Program-made: the position numbers and the translations under genes
DNA from: Patescibacteria group bacterium
GTDB taxonomy: Bacteria; Patescibacteriota; Minisyncoccia; UBA6257; 02-FULL-45-10c
DNA length: 64,000 bases
Assembly: GCA_018896875.1 (NCBI GenBank)
Contig: JAHILT010000006.1
Location: forward strand, 12,605-76,604
Direction of reading: 5' to 3'
The notes under the pieces: model-generated
The model's database searches: none
What the model saw: the letters and a program-made list of their open reading frames with translations, nothing else
Told to the model about the DNA's origin: nothing
Shown here: positions 143 to 53,229 of the stretch, piece after piece
How positions within the stretch are numbered: position 1 is the first letter of the stretch
How the letters are laid out: each line of letters starts with the position of its first letter

Positions 143-230
143 TATTATTCTGGTAGTTGTTTTTTTATTTCCAGTATGGTTATACTAGAAATAAGATCTT
201 TAAAAATTAAATATTAATGGAGGGATTGAT

Positions 231-1586
231 ATGGAACATACTATAAGATTAGATGCAAATGAGCCTAGTAAAAAAGCATTGGATCTTTTAAGATTTATGC
301 TTTCTACTATAAAAGGACAAGATAAGGCCATTGAAGACCTGATAGATGCTATTGAAATATATGAATCGGGGCTTTTTTCTGAAAATTCAGAAAACAAACC
401 GATTTATGTAGGTCTTTGTTGTGGTCCTTCTGGTGTAGGTAAAACGCTTACCGCTGAATTGCTTTCAGAATTTTGGTTCAACAAAAGAAATTGTTTTACT
501 AAAATTAGCTGTGAGTCTTATTCAGAGAGTCATTCTATCTCAAGGCTTATTGGTTCTCCTGCGGGATATGTTGGTTATTGGGATCCTGATAATGGTAAAT
601 CTAGTGCTTCGCCTATTCTTTGGCAGGGGAACATAGATAAATATGCCCTTGAAATTGATCCCAGTCTTTTAAGACTAGAGAAAGACCGGAATAAATTAGA
701 AAAAATGTCTTTTTCCATAGAAATGCGTTTATATACTATCTCAGCAGAGATTATGGAATTATTTGAGGAAGAGGGTGATATACAACAGGAAGATATACTT
801 CTGCTTTCAGAAAAGGCAAAGAAATTCAATCCTTTAAACAAAATGTATTTAGAAATTGAAAAGAAGCTCAAACAAATTGATGCTAAGATTGCTTTCTCTG
901 TTATCAAGAATCCAAAATCAATAATCTTGTTTGATGAGATTGAGAAAGCCAGTCCGGCTCTTCATAATATCTTATTAAATGTTATTGATAAGGGAGAGAT
1001 TACTCTTTCTAATGGCATGAAAACAGACTTTTCTAATAGTGTTATTCTCATGACGACCAATGTCGGTTCTCGTGCTATTGCTGGAATACTAAATCCTGGT
1101 AAAAAAATTGGCCTGCGACCGATAGAGAGCAGTGGAGTATTCGATGAGAAAATAAAAGATAATCAAATCTACAAAGAAACAATGAAGGAAGTTAGAGAAA
1201 AGTTTCCTCCTGAATTTCTTGCAAGGTTTGATAGGATAAGCGTCTATAGGCCTCTTGGGAAAGAGACTCTTCGTAGTATTCTTGAAGTAGAGATAGAAAA
1301 GTTTCAGAATCAAGTATTAAAAAAGTTGCCTATTAAGTTTTGTTTTGATGAAGAAGTCAAAGACTTTATACTTAATGAAGCAACTGATAAACCTCAGGAT
1401 GGAGCTAGACTTGTAAAGCTTAAGGTTTACAAATACTTACGGAAGCCTTTATGTCGTATGAAAAACAACAGAAAATTAAAAGCTGGAGATATTCTTTATA
1501 TTAGCCTTGAAGACAACAATGGTAAAAAGGATATTGTGTTTAAAAAAGAGACAAAAGACAAAAAAGGTTCTTCTAAAATTGTTTAA
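231..1586 (+). CDS. Stand-alone Clp/Hsp100-type AAA+ ATPase: a single D2-like module with a ~100-aa coiled-coil insertion
   Basis: Walker A GPSGVGKT, GSPAGYVGY, Walker B ILFDEIEKA, FPPEFLARFD, and a D2-small-like C-terminus. Strong SD GGAGGG at 219-224. Confidence 0.75.
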   Translation: MEHTIRLDANEPSKKALDLLRFMLSTIKGQDKAIEDLIDAIEIYESGLFSENSENKPIYVGLCCGPSGVGKTLTAELLSEFWFNKRNCFTKISCESYSESHSISRLIGSPAGYVGYWDPDNGKSSASPILWQGNIDKYALEIDPSLLRLEKDRNKLEKMSFSIEMRLYTISAEIMELFEEEGDIQQEDILLLSEKAKKFNPLNKMYLEIEKKLKQIDAKIAFSVIKNPKSIILFDEIEKASPALHNILLNVIDKGEITLSNGMKTDFSNSVILMTTNVGSRAIAGILNPGKKIGLRPIESSGVFDEKIKDNQIYKETMKEVREKFPPEFLARFDRISVYRPLGKETLRSILEVEIEKFQNQVLKKLPIKFCFDEEVKDFILNEATDKPQDGARLVKLKVYKYLRKPLCRMKNNRKLKAGDILYISLEDNNGKKDIVFKKETKDKKGSSKIV

Positions 1587-1607
1587 TGTGAACATTAAAA
1601 CAATCGA

Positions 1608-1634
1608 GCCGCCCCTTAAAAAAGGGCGGCTTTT
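1608..1634 (+). terminator. Intrinsic terminator after the Clp-like gene
   Basis: GCCGCCC (1608-1614) pairs with GGGCGGC (1624-1630), followed by TTTT. Confidence 0.8.
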
Positions 1635-6766: not shown

Positions 6767-6900
6767 TCCCACACATAATAAAAACTAATAAAATAAATAA
6801 ATTCTTAGATATTACAAAAATCAATGAATAAGTCGCAAAAAAATAATTTAACAACATTGACCATGAGAACTTTGCTTTTAAGTCTTTGTTATGTGTGGGA
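6767..6900 (+). mobile_element. MITE-like inverted-repeat element, copy A
   Basis: The 19-nt terminal inverted repeats TCCCACACATAATAAAAAC (6767-6785) and GTCTTTGTTATGTGTGGGA (6882-6900) pair at 17/19 positions. Full-length homology to copies at 35637-35766 and 49278-49408. Confidence 0.85.
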
Positions 6901-10105: not shown

Positions 10106-10134
10106 AATAAAAAGGCGACTCAAATGAGTCGCCT
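10106..10134 (-). terminator. Intrinsic terminator of the minus-strand wHTH gene
   Basis: AGGCGACTC-AAAT-GAGTCGCCT with an A-run on the plus strand (a T-run on the minus strand). Confidence 0.75.
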
Positions 10135-10139
10135 TAGTT

Positions 10140-10430
10140 TTATTCAGTTGGGCCCTTTTCAAGAAGAGAATCAAAAGTTTTTAAAAAACGCTTACCACGC
10201 CAGCTTAGCACATATCTAACCAGAATGAGGTTGTTTTTAATGGGCGTAGTCTTTATAAAGATATAGAATTCGCTACGCAGGAATTTCAAAGCATACTCTA
10301 TTTGTTTTGAATTTACTTGCAATTTTTTCTGAATTTCACTGATGAGGAGACCTTCTTGCCCCCGCAGAGCAAAGAGCATGCCCAAGATACAAAGGCGATC
10401 CTTGTTTGTTAGTTCTATCTTTCTAGCCAT
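10140..10430 (-). CDS. Small winged-helix DNA-binding protein (orphan, SD-led)
   Basis: 96 aa with a wHTH-like core (LLISEIQKKLQVNSKQIEYALKFL). Strong SD GGAGGA (complement of 10435-10440). Has its own terminator. Confidence 0.5.
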   Translation of the reverse strand: MARKIELTNKDRLCILGMLFALRGQEGLLISEIQKKLQVNSKQIEYALKFLRSEFYIFIKTTPIKNNLILVRYVLSWRGKRFLKTFDSLLEKGPTE

Positions 10431-10481
10431 TTTATCCTCCTATAAAATTTTTAACGATCTATTTAAAATAGGTATATCGTA

Positions 10482-15265: not shown

Positions 15266-15751
15266 TTATTTTTTAAAGCGGATAGCTTTTGGCAAGTTGT
15301 ATTTTTTTGAAAGTAGAGCATATTCAAAAATACCCTCTGTTTTTAATTGATTATTTTTTTTGTCTTTTCCGCCGAAGGCGGATCCGCCTTCGGCGGAAAT
15401 TTCTACTTTGATAATTATGCGATTGGTTTTAATTTTTACAAACTTTGCATTTGCTAATAATATTTTATCTTTATTTAAAATAATTGGATGATAAAATTTT
15501 ATTTTTTTTATTTCTGCTAATGGAGTAAAATATTTTGAATGCATCATGGCTACGGCTACTCCAGCGGCGTTTCCGAGTACAACTTGAACTCCGCCAGTTA
15601 TTATTTTGCCTTGAGCGCATTCTTTCATAGTTGAAGGCATTGAGATGACGGCTGAATTGGTATCTAGACTAATTAAAGATATTTGAAACCAATGAACAAA
15701 AGGATGTTTTTTAAACCATTTTTTAACCTCTTTGCTTTTTTTATTGTCCAT
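15266..15751 (-). CDS. PaaI/hotdog-fold thioesterase carrying a 30-bp palindrome in frame
   Basis: NSAVISMP...GKIITGGVQVVLGNAAGVAVAM pattern, typical of PaaI-type thioesterases. Confidence 0.6.
   Translation of the reverse strand: MDNKKSKEVKKWFKKHPFVHWFQISLISLDTNSAVISMPSTMKECAQGKIITGGVQVVLGNAAGVAVAMMHSKYFTPLAEIKKIKFYHPIILNKDKILLANAKFVKIKTNRIIIKVEISAEGGSAFGGKDKKNNQLKTEGIFEYALLSKKYNLPKAIRFKK
15368..15397. repeat. Perfect 30-bp palindrome (two tandem TCCGCC-N4-GGCGGA hairpins) inside a CDS
   Basis: TCCGCCGAAGGCGGATCCGCCTTCGGCGGA equals its own reverse complement. It encodes SAEGGSAFGG on the minus strand. Confidence 0.95.
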
Positions 15752-21186: not shown

Positions 21187-21235
21187 ATTTAATAGGGTAA
21201 TTTAAAAGTTAATTACAATATAGTATAAATCAACA

Positions 21236-21262
21236 TTGGCACTCTCGTCAAGGGAGTGCCAA
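21236..21262 (-). promoter_or_regulatory. CIRCE operator (HrcA binding site)
   Basis: TTGGCACTC-N9-GAGTGCCAA versus the consensus TTAGCACTC-N9-GAGTGCTAA. It lies 120-146 nt upstream of the hrcA start. Confidence 0.85.
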
Positions 21263-21269
21263 TAACTAT

Positions 21270-21316
21270 GGAGCAATTTCCAACGGCTCATATATTGAGC
21301 CGTTGGAAATTGCTCC
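21270..21316. repeat. Perfect 21-bp-stem hairpin (REP-like), copy 1
   Basis: GGAGCAATTTCCAACGGCTCA-TATAT-TGAGCCGTTGGAAATTGCTCC. The core recurs at 35558-35592. Confidence 0.9.
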
Positions 21317-28185: not shown

Positions 28186-28313
28186 ATATTTGATTTTACG
28201 TTAGAAAAAGCATTTAGGCAAGAATAATTTGATTTATAATGGTAAGTATTTTATTATGATGTTAGTTATTTAAAAGACCTATAATATAAGAATATTCGGT
28301 CAAGGAGGATAAT

Positions 28314-28631
28314 ATGAATAATTTGAAAGAATTAAGATTTGGGGATCTTGAGGATATTATTTTGATTAAAAAAGTAGAAGTTCAATCGCTACAGAAAGAG
28401 CTTAATTCTTTGTTTAATCAAGAATGTGATTATGTTAAAAACTGCAGTTTTCGCAATGAAAAAACTGGTTGTAATCTTTGTATATTAAAAGATGAATGTA
28501 GAGAAGAATCTAGAAAGATATTTGCGAGAATAGATATTCTTGAGGAAAAAATAGCTGGGATGTTACGAAAATTAGAATCTTTGTTTTTTGAATTGTTTGT
28601 AAAACAACAAAAAGAATCCAAAGAATCTTAA
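28314..28631 (+). CDS. Hypothetical small Cys-rich/coiled-coil protein (SD-led orphan)
   Basis: SD AGGAGG at 28303-28308. Cys cluster CDYVKNC...CNLC...C. Has its own terminator. Confidence 0.5.
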   Translation: MNNLKELRFGDLEDIILIKKVEVQSLQKELNSLFNQECDYVKNCSFRNEKTGCNLCILKDECREESRKIFARIDILEEKIAGMLRKLESLFFELFVKQQKESKES

Positions 28632-28636
28632 AAACT

Positions 28637-28672
28637 GCCCCCTTACTCGCAATAGAGTAAGGGGGCTTTATT
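28637..28672 (+). terminator. Intrinsic terminator
   Basis: GCCCCCTTACTC-GCAATA-GAGTAAGGGGGC followed by TTTATT. Confidence 0.85.
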
Positions 28673-34852: not shown

Positions 34853-34880
34853 AGTTGTTTAAAAACTTCGGAGGTGTTTT

Positions 34881-35495
34881 ATGAAAATAATAAAAGCTTA
34901 TTTTGTAATTGAAGATGAATTGAATGGAGAAAGATTTTTAAAATCTTTAGAAAAATATGGACGAGTTTGTTACAAAAGCGAGACCAATATAACTTTAGAT
35001 TCGGCTAAAAAATTTATAGCCAACATTCTTAAAAATCATCACGAATCAGTAATAGAACATGAAAAGGTAACTGTGCGGATTGTTTGTGATCGTGGTGTAA
35101 CTCATGAAATAGTGCGTCACAGACTTGGTTCTTATAGTCAGGAATCTACTCGTTATTGTGATTACCAAAAATCTGGCGAGGTAGTTTTCATAAAACCGTG
35201 TTTTTGGGGAAAAGACGATTCTGGATATTTAATCTGGGAGAAGTCTATGAAAGAAGCTGAACAGAAATACAACGAATTAAGAAAACTTGGTGCTACTCCT
35301 CAGGAAGCACGTTCTGTTCTTCCTAATTCTCTTAAGACCGAAATTATCGTTACTTATAATCTAAGAGAATGGCGTCATTTTTTCAAACTTCGTTGCTCAA
35401 CAAAAGCACATCCTCAAATGAGAGAGGTAGCAATATCTCTTTTGGCAGAATTCAGAAAAATAATTCCGATTATATTTGATGATATATCAGTATAA
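34881..35495 (+). CDS. thyX: FAD-dependent thymidylate synthase ThyX (SD-led)
   Basis: ThyX motif RHRLGSYSQESTRY. SD GGAGGTG at 34870-34876. Confidence 0.9.
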   Translation: MKIIKAYFVIEDELNGERFLKSLEKYGRVCYKSETNITLDSAKKFIANILKNHHESVIEHEKVTVRIVCDRGVTHEIVRHRLGSYSQESTRYCDYQKSGEVVFIKPCFWGKDDSGYLIWEKSMKEAEQKYNELRKLGATPQEARSVLPNSLKTEIIVTYNLREWRHFFKLRCSTKAHPQMREVAISLLAEFRKIIPIIFDDISV

Positions 35496-35507
35496 TAGTA
35501 AAACCAT

Positions 35508-35535
35508 AAAGCCCCCGTTCGCGGGGGCTTTTTTA
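35508..35535 (+). terminator. Intrinsic terminator
   Basis: GCCCCCG-TTCG-CGGGGGC plus T6. Confidence 0.9.
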
Positions 35536-35557: not shown

Positions 35558-35592
35558 ATTTCCAACGGCTCATATATTGAGCCGTTAGGAAT
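35558..35592. repeat. REP-like hairpin, copy 2
   Basis: ATTTCCAACGGCTCA-TATAT-TGAGCCGTTAGGAAT. One bulged A relative to the copy at 21270-21316. Confidence 0.85.
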
Positions 35593-35636
35593 TTTAATAA
35601 AATCTTGATTATTTGGTATAATAAGCATGGAATGAA

Positions 35637-35766
35637 TCCCCCACATAATTAAGACTGATAAAGTATAAATACTAGATGATGTAAAATTAATGAGTAAGTC
35701 GTAAAAAAATAATTTAATGATATTGATTATGAAAGTTTCACTTTCTGGTCTTTGTTATGTGGGGGA
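35637..35766 (+). mobile_element. MITE-like inverted-repeat element, copy B
   Basis: TCCCCCACATAATTAAGAC ... GTCTTTGTTATGTGGGGGA. Flanked by ATGAA on both sides (35632-35636 and 35766-35770). Confidence 0.85.
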
Positions 35767-39519: not shown

Positions 39520-39647
39520 AAAATTAACCTTGTTTTTCCCTGGTGCTTTGCTAGGCTTATCAATATAAGTTGTTCTTTGATTTTAAAAATATAAAAGGTC
39601 GCCTACTCCGTCAACTGGCGGATATGGCGAACTAAAGGAGGCGCTAT

Positions 39648-40034
39648 ATGGATGAGCAGACACGACAGTCAATTTGTAAAATAATACAAATTACAGAAAT
39701 GACTCGGAAGGGTCAAGTGATTTGGCATAAAAAACCAAAAAGCATGTTACTAACCGATTCTTTTCGAATCGTGCATTGGGTGAATCCAAACAAACACTAC
39801 AAAGATGTTTATCTTGGATTAGAAACAAAAAAGAACATTCTTTGTATGGTAATAGAAGACTATAAATTGCATAATGACAAAAACTATATAAACGCCGAAG
39901 GTCAGGCAAAGAAATTAATGAAAAAACTTTTTTGTCTTGTGGAAAAGAGAGTAATAGAAAGAAAAATTTGCCAAAAATGTAAAGAAATAAGAATGCTTTT
40001 AAAACTAAGAAGAGACAAAGGATTTAGTAGGTAG
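39648..40034 (+). CDS. Hypothetical protein (SD-led orphan)
   Basis: SD AAGGAGG at 39635-39641. Has its own GC-rich terminator. No recognisable domain. Confidence 0.45.
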   Translation: MDEQTRQSICKIIQITEMTRKGQVIWHKKPKSMLLTDSFRIVHWVNPNKHYKDVYLGLETKKNILCMVIEDYKLHNDKNYINAEGQAKKLMKKLFCLVEKRVIERKICQKCKEIRMLLKLRRDKGFSR

Positions 40035-40096
40035 TTCTTTAGTATTTTTAGCTAATCATATTACAAGTGAACCACAACATTTCAAATTGCTTTTCG

Positions 40097-40133
40097 CCCC
40101 CACACTTATATTAAGTGTGGGGGTTTATTTTTT
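40097..40133 (+). terminator. Intrinsic terminator with MITE-like arms
   Basis: CCCCCACACTTA-TAT-TAAGTGTGGGGG followed by TTTATTTTTT. Confidence 0.9.
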
Positions 40134-40207
40134 ATCCTCCCGAACATTCGCCCTAGGCGAATGTTTTAGGGTATAATTAAAAATAATTATCATTAATTTA
40201 CATAAAT

Positions 40208-42436: not shown

Positions 42437-42525
42437 ATCGTTTAGCGCTTTGACAAGCTTAATTGAATATTGCATACTGTTATTAGTATCGTTTTTTTGA
42501 CAAATTTTAAACAAGGAGAATGATT

Positions 42526-42711
42526 ATGAAAGATAAAGAAGCTGAGGAGAATAAAAAACAGCAACAACATAATTCTAATAAGATTAATATAACAGAAATT
42601 GTTTTTTTTGTATTTATATTAATTATTTTCATTATTGCCTTAATTGAAGAAAGGCCTGGTATTGAAAAAAAATCGCCAGAAATAGAACAAAGTCAAAATA
42701 AAACACACTAG
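42526..42711 (+). CDS. Small single-TM protein (SD-led orphan)
   Basis: SD AAGGAG at 42513-42518 fits the ATG at 42526, not the track start at 42520. One hydrophobic helix. Confidence 0.4.
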   Translation: MKDKEAEENKKQQQHNSNKINITEIVFFVFILIIFIIALIEERPGIEKKSPEIEQSQNKTH

Positions 42712-42722
42712 CTCTTTATTTA

Positions 42723-42757
42723 CCCCCACACCTATATATAAGTGTGGGGGTTTATTT
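42723..42757 (+). terminator. Intrinsic terminator with MITE-like arms
   Basis: CCCCCACAC-CTATATATAA-GTGTGGGGG followed by TTTATTT. Confidence 0.85.
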
Positions 42758-42790
42758 GTTGTAGAAGTATTTTTTGTTATAATTAAAAGG

Positions 42791-47797: not shown

Positions 47798-48223
47798 ATG
47801 GCAAAACCTATTAAAATAATTTTAAAATTACAATTAGAAGCAGGCAAGGCAAATCCTGCTCCTCCTGTTGGCACCGCATTAGGACCGCATGGAGTTAATA
47901 TTCAAGATTTTTGTAAAAAATTTAATGATGCCACGAAAGATATGATAGGGGATGTTGTTCCAGCTGAAATTACTATTTACGAAGATAGAAGTTTTGATTT
48001 TAAGCTTAAGACTTCACCAGCTTCCTCCTTACTTAAAAAAGCTGCTGGGATTGAAAAAGGCTCAGCAAATGCTTTGACTCAAAAAGTTGGCAAAGTTACC
48101 AAAGCTGATATAAAAGAAATAGCTGAAAAGAAAATGGTTGACTTAAATGCTTATGACTTAGACGCTGCGATGAAGATTATTGAAGGCACTGCAAGAAATA
48201 TGGGAATAGAAGTTGAGAAATAA
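47798..48223 (+). CDS. rplK: 50S ribosomal protein L11
   Basis: [26 protein letters not shown] signature. Confidence 0.97.
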
Positions 48224-48232
48224 ACAAAATAT

Positions 48233-48263
48233 AAAAAACCGGTCATTTAAATGACCGGTTTTT
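48233..48263. terminator. Bidirectional intrinsic terminator
   Basis: AAAAAACCGGTCATTTAAATGACCGGTTTTT, a perfect palindrome flanked by A and T runs. Confidence 0.9.
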
Positions 48264-48287
48264 GATTGTCTTTAATTAAGACACATA

Positions 48288-48536
48288 TTAAAATATCTTC
48301 TTAATCTTAAAGGAATAATACCAATATTTCTTTGCTATCCAAAAGTAGAGTTTACTAATTTTAAACACTAATGGTTTTTCTTGGTTGTGATTATGAGTGG
48401 TGGCGGTTATTTTACAACGCAAACATCGCCAGTCTTTCAGTTGTTCAAATTTTAAGAGATTATCCCGCCATGATTCTATTTCTGCAAAATTTCTTAAATC
48501 CCAAGCATGTCCAAACAAAAGACAAATTTTATTCAT
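48288..48536 (-). CDS. Small Cys/His protein, DUF1660-like (SD-led orphan)
   Basis: CLLFGHAW...CLRC pattern. SD GGAGGG (complement of 48541-48546). Confidence 0.4.
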   Translation of the reverse strand: MNKICLLFGHAWDLRNFAEIESWRDNLLKFEQLKDWRCLRCKITATTHNHNQEKPLVFKISKLYFWIAKKYWYYSFKIKKIF

Positions 48537-48659
48537 AACTCCCTCCTTTTAAAGTTCTATTGTCATTTTACATCTATTTTTTAATTTAGTCAAATTTACT
48601 ATTAGCTGATTTTTTGTCATTTATATATAATAAAATTTATACTATACTAAGATAAACAT

Positions 48660-49289
48660 ATGAAAAAAGGAAAATTTATTGTATTAGATGGAATAGATGG
48701 CTGTGGCAAAGGAACGATTCTTAAAAAAATCGCGTCTTATTTAGTTAATAAAAATAAAATGAGCCATGTCTTATTAACTCGTGAGCCATATATCTCTGAA
48801 CATAATGCTGAAATTCGAAGAATGATGAAAGAGAATGCTAATCCTTATGATAATGCTGAAATTTTCGCTGATCTTTTTGTAAAAGATAGAAAAGTTCATG
48901 CCGATTGGATTCAAAAAGAATTAGTAGCTGGGCATCACGTAGTTTGTGATAGATATAAATATTCGACATTAGCATATCAGCAAACACAAGGTATTTCTTT
49001 GATAAAACTTATAGAAATGCATAAAGGAGTTTTAATTCCAGATCTTGCGATAATTGTGGATGTGCCTGTGGAAGAAGCAATTCGTCGCGCCAATAAGGAC
49101 AAGAATAGAAATTTTAAGGAGGTTTTTGAAAAACAAGAATTTCAGGAAAAATTAAGAACGAATTATCTTGCTTTTCCCAAGGCTTTTCCGAAAGAAAATA
49201 TAGTTGTTTTAACGGGAGTTAGTTCTGATATAATTTTTGAAAAATCTAAAATTGAAATTGATAAAATTTTAAACGAGTCCCACACATAA
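48660..49289 (+). CDS. tmk: Thymidylate kinase
   Basis: P-loop DGIDGCGKGT, DRYKYST, LID-like RR motif. The last 4 codons and the stop lie inside MITE copy C. Confidence 0.9.
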   Translation: MKKGKFIVLDGIDGCGKGTILKKIASYLVNKNKMSHVLLTREPYISEHNAEIRRMMKENANPYDNAEIFADLFVKDRKVHADWIQKELVAGHHVVCDRYKYSTLAYQQTQGISLIKLIEMHKGVLIPDLAIIVDVPVEEAIRRANKDKNRNFKEVFEKQEFQEKLRTNYLAFPKAFPKENIVVLTGVSSDIIFEKSKIEIDKILNESHT

Positions 49290-49408
49290 CAAAAACTGAT
49301 AAAATATAATATTTTAAATATCATAAAAACTGATGAATAATTCGCGAGAAAATAATTAACAACATTAATTACAAAAGCCTTACTTTTGGGTTTTTGTTAT
49401 GTGGGGGA
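49278..49408 (+). mobile_element. MITE-like inverted-repeat element, copy C
   Basis: TCCCACACATAACAAAAAC ... GTTTTTGTTATGTGGGGGA (18/19 paired). Flanks are ACGAG and ATGAG. Confidence 0.85.
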
Positions 49409-52877: not shown

Positions 52878-52906
52878 TTGACAGAAAAACAAGGCACCGA
52901 TACAAT
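52878..52906 (+). promoter_or_regulatory. Near-consensus sigma-70-type promoter for the small zinc-ribbon gene
   Basis: TTGACA (52878-52883), a 17-nt spacer, then TACAAT (52901-52906). SD AGGAGG at 52931-52936. Confidence 0.55.
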
Positions 52907-52944
52907 AAAAACATCTTTAAAAATTTAATAAGGAGGAATGGATT

Positions 52945-53175
52945 ATGTCAGAAAAAAAAAGTTGTGATAATGAAAAATGCAGAGTTTGTGGAAAAGATAA
53001 GATGCTTACCGCTGAAGGAGTGTGTGTGTATTGTTCTTATCCTCCAGGTTATCCTTTGCATAAAGACTGGAAAAAACTACAGAAAGAACTTCTTCCGAAA
53101 CAACGAGAAAAAGACCGGAAATTAAAAAAATGGGCTCGGAATTGGAAGAAATCCCTTAGCCGAAAACGTACGTAG
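52945..53175 (+). CDS. Small zinc-ribbon protein with a highly basic tail (SD-led orphan)
   Basis: CDNEKCRVCG...CVYC four-Cys pattern. The C-terminus is rich in K/R. Confidence 0.5.
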   Translation: MSEKKSCDNEKCRVCGKDKMLTAEGVCVYCSYPPGYPLHKDWKKLQKELLPKQREKDRKLKKWARNWKKSLSRKRT

Positions 53176-53198
53176 ATATTTAAATCAAGGTCTAACAA

Positions 53199-53229
53199 AA
53201 GGAGCATTAGAATATAATGCTCCTTTTTT
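53199..53229. terminator. Intrinsic terminator
   Basis: GGAGCATT-AGAATAT-AATGCTCC followed by TTTTTT. Confidence 0.85.

Follow-up and report, generated by a model that had tools for sequence, protein, structure and literature searches.

Two classes of gene starts are found in the DNA stretch analyzed here, a segment of 64,000 nucleotides (nt) of contig JAHILT010000006.1 from a Patescibacteria group bacterium (hereafter, the window). Conserved core genes begin without a Shine–Dalgarno (SD) sequence, and eight of 60 genes—mostly lineage-restricted or not shared with relatives—are led by a strong one; this division holds in the window as well as across the lineage. Among the SD-led genes, the one starting at 28314 (the focal gene) is described most closely. 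The explanation that we favor, and hold to be reasonably probable, is that SD-independent initiation is the default in this genome, next to a minority of free-standing, SD-led genes under selection.

SD strength was scored for the 60 genes as the duplex energy of positions −20 to −3 of each start versus 5'-ACCUCCUUU-3', which is the canonical 16S tail. All eight SD motifs and start positions that an earlier reading of the letters alone (the sequence-only reading) had listed were located where it had placed them:

Gene 231: SD GGAGGG, 6-nt spacer, ATG; −9.8 kcal/mol
Gene 10430, minus strand: SD AGGAGGA, 4-nt spacer; −10.2 kcal/mol
Gene 28314 (focal gene): SD AGGAGG, 5-nt spacer; −11.2 kcal/mol
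Gene 34881 (thyX): SD GGAGGTG, 4-nt spacer; −10.8 kcal/mol
Gene 39648: SD AAGGAGG, 6-nt spacer; −11.7 kcal/mol
Gene 42526: SD AAGGAG, 7-nt spacer; −8.3 kcal/mol (second ATG taken as start)
Gene 48536, minus strand: SD AAGGAGGGAG; −12.3 kcal/mol
Gene 52945: SD AAGGAGG, 8-nt spacer; −11.1 kcal/mol

Seven genes fall between −9.8 and −12.3 kcal/mol, with 42526 as the eighth at −8.3. The distribution over the 60 genes is bimodal: between −9.8 and −5 kcal/mol lie only 42526 and two artefacts, namely gene 14398 (−8.4), whose 5' region is the 3' end of a tRNA-Lys, and gene 9411 (−7.3), which bears a mis-spaced GGGGAAG 12 nt from its start. As the sequence-only reading had noted, the housekeeping genes of the window are without SD; the two classes track gene type. 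The SD core—GGAGG at seven sites and AGGAG at one—is complementary to the CCUCC core of the canonical 16S tail, and the spacers measure 4–8 nt. The median duplex energy of the SD-less genes is +0.6 kcal/mol versus −0.5 at random positions; hence, their leaders are depleted of SD-like sequence. Intergenic GGAGG occurs nine times (5.8 kb, both strands), versus a mean of 1.7 and a maximum of 7 in 2000 shuffling trials. Seven of these nine are SDs of the listed genes, 5–8 nt before their ATG, and no additional SD-led small open reading frame (ORF) was found around the intergenic GGAGG motifs of the window. The motif TTTAAA or TTAAAA is present in 6/8 SD-led leaders and in 13/52 of the other window genes. 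The two classes show no difference in folding energy from −25 to +25 around the start (p 0.17).

The focal cassette has the following parts, of which the promoter is predicted:

28229–28285, plus strand: promoter-like region from a consensus scan, TTGATT-17-TATTAT (28229–28257) and a perfect TATAAT (28280–28285)
28303–28308, plus strand: SD AGGAGG, 5 nt 5' of the ATG, −11.2 kcal/mol
28314–28631, plus strand: coding sequence, 105 amino acids, predicted two-helix coiled-coil hairpin with a Cys4 knuckle
28637–28666, plus strand: terminator, GCCCCCTTACTC-loop-GAGTAAGGGGGC followed by TTTATT, 12 pairs with 8 GC

Close homologues of the focal gene lie in L081 (77% identity) and L090 (79%). In both of them, and in the closest species representative (L001; 40% identity, with MnmA at 66%), the orthologue is positioned between efp and mnmA. 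L081 is a 445-kb contig whose gene order follows that of the window from hrcA to PPDK, and there 16 other genes without SD stand beside the SD-led focal orthologue and thyX. The SD is found in each orthologue—as AAGGAGG-N5-ATG in L081, AAAAGGAGG in L090, and GGAGG-N5-ATG in L001—and a GC-rich terminator sits at the same place in all three, although its stem and the sequence around these signals have diverged. Since the SD is kept down to 40% protein identity, selection rather than mere retention is indicated. No family but the focal one is consistently SD-led across the clustered loci. Of the promoter-like region, TTGATT and the block TTAGTTATTTAAAA are likewise kept in L081, L090, and L001, and promoter activity at 28229–28285 is predicted from these motifs. 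Each of the four focal orthologues also keeps a block, TATTTAAAA, ahead of its SD. Two roles are conceivable for this block: that of an A/U-rich enhancer or that of a −10 element, in which case the mRNA would carry the SD at its very 5' end.

The focal protein is under purifying selection, with a dN/dS of 0.18–0.28 versus L081 and L090 and with four cysteines (C44, C53, C56, and C62; motif C-x8-C-x2-C-x5-C) that are invariant in 13 sequences of the family. A profile search of 1.84 billion representatives retrieved a family of proteins of ~100 amino acids in 11 clusters at 50% identity. By the account of the sequence-only reading itself, its interpretation would fall if such orphans proved to be conserved core genes of the lineage. 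For the focal gene, half of this is the case: it is conserved, but within a narrow family. The AlphaFold2 model (pLDDT 83) shows helices 4–43 and 60–104 packed antiparallel with the Cys4 at the tip, so that the protein is, as modeled, a small conserved coiled-coil hairpin with a predicted metal-binding tip. No Pfam, PHROG, or PADLOC match was obtained for it, and a Foldseek search returned generic coiled coils only (best E 0.25), with no significant fold in the PDB. A predicted antiparallel coiled coil whose turn bears a Cys cluster is reminiscent of zinc-hook and zinc-ribbon proteins such as the Rad50 hook and DUF164 (CT398, MSMEG_4306). However, there is no significant match to these, and the focal apex differs by four cysteines per chain instead of a single CxxC, in a protein of 105 amino acids without further domain.

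The same division is seen in relatives. All 72 related loci are SD-poor, with 0–30% and mostly <15% SD-led genes. After clustering of the 1,591 predicted proteins of the loci, SD-led genes amount to 8.1% of the unshared genes versus 1.8% of those whose family has at least three members. With the loci as strata, this enrichment corresponds to a Mantel–Haenszel odds ratio of 4.4 (Cochran–Mantel–Haenszel p 7e-6). A metagenome scan anchored on the M23 peptidase had yielded four loci, all too distant for a comparison of 48288 or 52945; one of the four, L087, is not a relative and was left out of the stratified test. Start choice within the first 30 codons gave false SDs, and the limit was set at 10 codons for the family analysis; a GGAGG that encodes SGGVDS inside mnmA and is followed by GTG was rejected as a false-positive SD. 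The SD-led genes of relatives contain more Cys (p 3e-6), are followed by stronger downstream hairpins (p 3e-7), and in many cases encode small Zn-ribbon-like or membrane proteins. In the pooled loci, the spacing from GGAGG to ATG peaks at 5–7 nt, A is enriched just 5' of GGAGG, and the SDs of relatives are often extended to AGAAAGGAGGTGAT, the exact complement of the canonical 16S tail. Extension, flanking A, and spacing would indirectly point to an anti-SD that is intact in this group.

SD-less genes appear to start in more than one way. Of the 673 SD-less genes with an upstream gap of at least 50 nt in the window and the 72 related loci, 41 have a TATAAT-like hexamer whose end lies exactly 6 nt from the start, versus ~7 at other offsets, with a shoulder at 7–11 nt. 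Such a constant, short distance between the Pribnow box and the start of first genes is the leaderless geometry of GeneMarkS-2 group C (PMC6028130). Hence, the −10 box exactly 6 nt before the ATG suggests leaderless mRNAs for many SD-less first genes, and leaderless starts appear to be common among the first genes of operons. In the window, nine candidates were identified, including efp, thrS, the M23 peptidase gene, mraZ, and rplJ. Of the other SD-less window genes, 18 start ≤40 nt after an upstream gene, and the leaders of 25 are AT-rich; core genes inside operons or with a leader likewise have no SD. SD-less leaders are A-rich from −11 to −2, bear T at −1, and contain G at only 4–10%, which resembles the Bacteroidia pattern. 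These other SD-less genes are characterized by A-rich, G-poor leaders or by translational coupling to the upstream gene.

We would therefore describe initiation in this Parcubacteria/Paceibacterota genome as follows. SD-independent initiation would be the default: many operon first genes would be leaderless, with a −10 box ending 6 nt before the ATG, and the remaining SD-less genes would rely on A-rich, G-poor leaders or on coupling to the upstream gene. A minority (8/60) would form free-standing units of a promoter-like site (clear, weak, or absent), a short 5' untranslated region (UTR) with a strong and well-spaced SD, an ORF, and a strong terminator. In these units, the SD would be a working initiation signal kept by purifying selection, and the class would be made up largely of genes that are restricted to the lineage or not shared at all, many of them small and Cys-rich, with a few enzymes (such as thyX and the AAA+ ATPase) in addition. 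This implies that the ribosome probably keeps a usable anti-SD. It also implies that the SD-less first genes are presumably leaderless and that the SD-led genes might need their SD because neither a 5'-terminal AUG nor coupling is usable for them.

Several points weigh against this explanation. No match to the conserved AAGTCGTAACAAGGTA region of the 16S 3' end was found in the window or in loci L001–L081, and Rfam on the window gave tRNAs only. According to Tsurumaki et al. 2022 (PMC9297842), the CCTCCT anti-SD was not detected in roughly half of the Parcubacteria, for the most part those that lack uL1, and the authors propose that no SD helix is formed in this uL1-lacking group. Here, no rplA (encoding uL1) is present after rplK or before rplJ (window 47798–48263 and 1–2743, both usual positions); 3' of rplK, there is a bidirectional terminator, and 5' of rplJ-rplL, an AAA+ ATPase gene and a PCMT gene. 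Hence, uL1 is absent from both canonical positions, as in the group without detected anti-SD, which fits the uL1-lacking subgroup of PMC9297842. SD-like motifs are not avoided inside the window genes (observed/expected 1.15; 0.88 in relatives), values that do not tell an active anti-SD from an inactive one. Leaderless transcription and promoter use are predictions. The unshared category is impure, since some of its members are core genes located beyond the synteny block that was sampled. In relatives, SD-led genes lie next to each other more often than expected (14 pairs versus 5). Furthermore, five of the eight SD-led genes show a somewhat raised GC content at third codon positions (GC3) and a lower codon adaptation index (CAI; p 0.017). 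Together with the adjacency of SD-led genes, this makes a horizontal origin likely for part of the class. On the other side, the conserved and well-spaced SDs would argue against a loss of the SD helix in this sublineage.

The sequence-only reading had proposed that the cassettes might be recently acquired phage- or plasmid-derived minigenes, which resemble phage morons, still bear the promoter, SD, and terminator of the donor, and are not yet adapted. As an account of the class, we consider this unlikely. Such an origin would agree with the enrichment of SD-led genes among those without homologue, the adjacent pairs in relatives, and the atypical composition of some members: GC3 is 0.39 in the winged helix-turn-helix (wHTH) gene versus 0.215 in the core, and 48288, 39648, 52945, and 231 are mildly atypical. 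Also, 52945 is without homologue, 48288 has weak matches to prophage families, and for the ATPase there is a match to a phage-defence-candidate model. Two cassettes have nearly the same terminator, and ATC[T/G]TTAAAAATT recurs in three 5' UTRs. However, the cassettes are flanked by housekeeping genes, and relatives carry the focal gene, thyX, and 39648 at matching positions, each with its SD and its terminator, the focal gene down to 40% identity. For these three genes, the proposal is not upheld, neither as recent acquisition nor as moron-like insertion. This same-site comparison covered the focal gene, thyX, 39648, and 42526; the site of the latter is occupied by other genes in L085. A difference in composition from the core had been suggested as a check: overall GC is host-like throughout, and GC3 and CAI split the class, the focal gene, thyX, and 42526 being like the host in both. 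Next to the cassettes, the window contains no integrase, no phage gene, and no att-like tRNA junction. IMG/VR scans gave no viral relatives of 48288 and 39648, and for the ATPase one distant match at 32% identity. Comparison of the small SD-led genes with PHROGs and PADLOC yielded no decisive match. In the explanation favored here, the SD-led class does not consist of freshly imported DNA; it is heterogeneous in age, with SDs that are maintained. A foreign origin is plausible for some members, for example, the wHTH gene (10140–10430) and 52945.

The second option raised from the letters, a dedicated regulon with its own mode of initiation, strikes us as improbable to a similar or slightly greater degree. 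It would require that the anti-SD is normally unavailable, as it is in Bacteroidia by sequestration through bS21/bS18/bS6, and that SD-led genes form a translational regulon. The uniform lack of SDs in core genes—even highly expressed ones—and the conservation of SDs on a specific gene set would be expected from it, as would the A-rich SD-less leaders known from Bacteroidia (PMC6028130) and the SD-like motifs that are not avoided in window genes. Precedent is given by the SD-dependent autoregulation through bS21-less ribosomes in Flavobacterium johnsoniae (PMC9976891, PMC13000453). Parcubacteria often lack bS21 (PMC9297842), and TTTAAA(A) is found 5' of the SD in 6/8 versus 13/52 genes. Against this, the products are without common function, the set is uneven in its breadth of conservation, and ~13% SD-led genes are far above the one or few of Flavobacterium. 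As a stronger form of this idea, which we offer as a speculation with small odds of being right, the ribosome of the uL1-less Parcubacteria clade may handle SD-led mRNAs through a channel of their own. Its anti-SD would exist but be occluded as a rule, or only a subpopulation of ribosomes would use it, and the conserved SD-led genes, with their small Cys-rich proteins, thyX, and the AAA+ ATPase, would be a translationally gated regulon. SD-blind ribosomes with an SD-gated rpsU are the Bacteroidia precedent (PMC7797042, PMC9976891, PMC13000453); if true, this would be a second independent case of an SD-blind ribosome with SD-gated genes, so far known only from Bacteroidia.

It is quite improbable that the GGAGG motifs are not ribosome-binding sites at all but protein-binding or transcriptional elements in a lineage without functional anti-SD. 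The undetected anti-SD of uL1-lacking Parcubacteria (PMC9297842), the absence of rplA from its usual places here, and the internal SD-like motifs would be in line with such a role. Nevertheless, a distance of 4–8 nt to the ATG is canonical SD spacing, the flanking A and the extended matches to AUCACCUCCUUUCU in relatives fit the 16S tail, and a failure to detect the anti-SD in draft metagenome-assembled genomes (MAGs) may reflect truncated 16S genes. Chance or a gene-calling artefact, suggested by small ORFs that were called mechanically and in some cases lack homologues, is effectively refuted by the 5-fold enrichment of intergenic GGAGG, mostly well spaced before ORFs of at least 76 amino acids, by orthologues under purifying selection, and by a terminator of its own for each cassette.

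An SD-independent default with a selected SD-led minority has likenesses in several known systems and is identical to none of those compared. In SD-poor genomes of the Bacteroidia type (Flavobacterium johnsoniae, Bacteroides), most genes are likewise without SD, leaders are A-rich and G-poor, and a few selected SDs are present (PMC6028130, PMC7797042, PMC9976891). However, ~3% or a single gene is SD-led there versus ~13% here, and the genes in question are rpsU or prfB rather than small lineage-specific proteins. Moreover, leaderless starts appear common here, and a sequestered anti-SD is known there. GeneMarkS-2 group C (Actinobacteria, Deinococcus) shares the fixed Pribnow box of first genes and the coexistence of two start models (PMC6028130), but its non-leaderless genes generally use SDs, whereas the SD is here confined to free-standing genes. 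The uL1-lacking Parcubacteria (PMC9297842) are the same taxon, with rplA missing at its usual places and SDs near absent in the core; an SD helix is suggested to be absent there, whereas the conserved SDs of the window would argue for anti-SD use in this sublineage. Phage morons are similar as small genes between unrelated operons with a terminator and, for some, a predicted promoter-like site. They differ in that the cassettes lie outside any prophage and without phage neighbors, and that several are position-conserved across species.

Bacteroidia, Actinobacteria, and Deinococcus are known to combine different initiation modes in one genome; no description for Patescibacteria was found in the literature. 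Strong SDs that are kept by a stable gene set, while ribosomal, chaperone, and replication genes are without them, bear on the proposal of SD-helix loss and make the anti-SD question directly testable in this clade. The SD is here confined to free-standing, mostly lineage-specific genes in a clade for which a loss of the SD mechanism had been suggested. For gene finders, dual start models would be suited to these genomes; the longest-ORF caller set wrong starts at the L001 orthologue and at three insertions that resemble miniature inverted-repeat transposable elements (MITEs; see below). Also, the strong SDs may mark a set of small conserved proteins, probably metal-binding, as products of real and expressed genes in organisms whose small ORFs mostly go unnoticed.

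The other seven SD-led cassettes are organized as follows:

219–1631, plus strand: cassette 1; SD GGAGGG 219–224, coding sequence 231–1586, terminator 1607–1631
10112–10441, minus strand: cassette 2; SD AGGAGG 10441–10436, coding sequence 10430–10140, terminator 10135–10112
34870–35531, plus strand: cassette 4; SD GGAGGTG 34870–34876, thyX coding sequence 34881–35495, terminator 35508–35531
39635–40124, plus strand: cassette 5; SD AAGGAGG 39635–39641, coding sequence 39648–40034, terminator 40096–40124
42513–42751, plus strand: cassette 6; SD AAGGAG 42513–42518, coding sequence 42526–42711, terminator 42722–42751
48234–48548, minus strand: cassette 7; SD AAGGAGGGAG 48548–48539, coding sequence 48536–48288, terminator 48263–48234
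52878–53227, plus strand: cassette 8; predicted promoter TTGACA-17-TACAAT 52878–52906, SD AGGAGG 52931–52936, coding sequence 52945–53175, terminator 53197–53227

The first encodes a stand-alone AAA+ ATPase (231–1586) with AAA_2 and ClpB_D2-small domains and without the N-terminal or first AAA domain. It is positioned between the PCMT gene and rplJ, with no partner gene next to it, and matches the PADLOC phage-defence-candidate model PDC-M37B (E 4e-29); the distant match mentioned above is its only one in IMG/VR. The product of cassette 2 (96 amino acids; GC3 0.39, CAI 0.41) is likely a wHTH protein by a sub-threshold match. The thyX assignment passes the Pfam gathering score (Thy1, E 4e-52; 177 bits versus a cutoff of 24.8), and the orthologue in L081 (90% identity) keeps the SD, as GAGGAG, and a GC-rich terminator. 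The 39648 product (128 amino acids, 5 Cys) belongs to no family and has a single homologue, P0006 in L089, at 77% identity; its SD is GGGAGGTG, its terminator is kept, and both genes share the position between the genes for PPDK and a 2-hydroxyacid dehydrogenase. Gene 42526 encodes 61 amino acids with one transmembrane helix. Cassette 7 (82 amino acids) bears a bidirectional terminator in common with rplK and a predicted promoter TTGACT-17-TAAAAT at 48593–48565. Its coding sequence fails the Pfam DUF1660 threshold (18.1 bits versus 21.4, E 0.004) and matches PHROG 2670 weakly (E 4e-4). The 52945 product has 76 amino acids with CxxC...CxxC, and no homologue of it was found among 5.8 billion proteins.

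Some general attributes that had been assigned to the SD-led genes need adjustment. An intrinsic terminator, that is, a hairpin plus T-run, does follow 8/8 genes; the one at 42722–42751, after the coding sequence ending at 42711, was missed by the scan tool and found besides. Terminators are not exclusive to this class, being also present after the SD-less genes 32429, 34806, 44817, and 50880. A monocistronic mRNA is no more than plausible for 10430, thyX, and 39648: 10430 lies 51 nt after dnaB with no terminator between, and thyX has no clear promoter after the upstream terminator. The description as Cys-rich is clear for only four of the eight, and the labels DUF1660-like and wHTH rest on matches below threshold. 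Four of the terminator stems are made of C5/G5 runs. Those after 39648 and 42526 (40091–40134 and 42717–42760) are near-identical over ~38 nt, CCCCCACAC-TATAT-AAGTGTGGGGGTTTATTT; the two proteins are unrelated, and this looks like a duplicated terminator module. The motif ATC[T/G]TTAAAAATT lies 7–11 nt 5' of the SD in 231 (196–208), 52945 (52913–52925), and 10430 (10458–10446, minus strand). As a shared UTR motif it counts only as a lead: three of its four exact copies are just 5' of SDs, and, with one mismatch allowed, 7 versus 3.9 are not above chance.

The source of the window is a Parcubacteria/Paceibacterota bacterium with a tiny genome. The best MnmA match among 185,579 species genomes has 66% identity, and every good match is a Patescibacteria, Parcubacteria, or Paceibacterota MAG. 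At 31% GC, the window is dense in housekeeping genes, whose earlier identification was borne out for L10, L7/L12, L21, L11, L32, MraZ, RsmH, PBP, and MurF, as well as DnaK/J, GrpE, HrcA, CysS, ThrS, AlaS, GatB, DnaB, DnaE, GyrB, SecE, NusG, and others. They are organized in part as rplJ-rplL, a mraZ-rsmH-ftsI-murF cluster, hrcA-grpE-dnaK-dnaJ, and secE-nusG-rplK. Further genes are tgt, rplU, dnaB, cysS, secDF, efp, mnmA, obg, PPDK, enolase, and gyrB, along with tmk, gatB, thrS, dnaE, rpmF, nusB, rnc, smc, rmuC, and alaS. An inverted repeat TTGGCACTC...GAGTGCCA, similar to the controlling inverted repeat of chaperone expression (CIRCE), lies at about 21225–21265, 5' of hrcA-grpE-dnaK, and also at the orthologous site of L081. 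A 34-nt GC-rich perfect hairpin TTTCCGCCGAAGGCGGATCCGCCTTCGGCGGAAA (10 GC pairs; 15366–15399) is located inside the unannotated ORF 15266–15751 (minus strand), which may be shorter than called or no gene.

Three copies of a MITE-like element of ~134 nt are present at 6767–6900, 35637–35766, and 49278–49408 (plus strand), 64–84% identical by stretch. They bear terminal inverted repeats (TIRs) of 14–17 nt (ATCCCMCACATAA...TTATGTGKGGGAT) and fold to a long hairpin of −30 to −39 kcal/mol. The insertions affect murF, the MOFRL/glycerate-kinase gene, and gatB, in each case exactly at the start codon and in the orientation of the gene. Every copy brings in a spurious ATG (MWG/MCG) 9 nt ahead of the real start (6900, 35766, and 49408). 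The element is absent at the orthologous MOFRL site of L081, has no Rfam match, and is found nowhere else in the window; its TIR pattern gave one candidate match in the loci compared, in L063. Finally, a 36-nt palindrome ATTTCCAACGGCTCATATATTGAGCCGTTGGAAATT occurs twice, in the hrcA–secD gap (21276–21311) and in the gap between the thyX terminator and the MOFRL gene (35558–35593), with a related copy after thyX in L081; it looks like an operator for a dimeric regulator.

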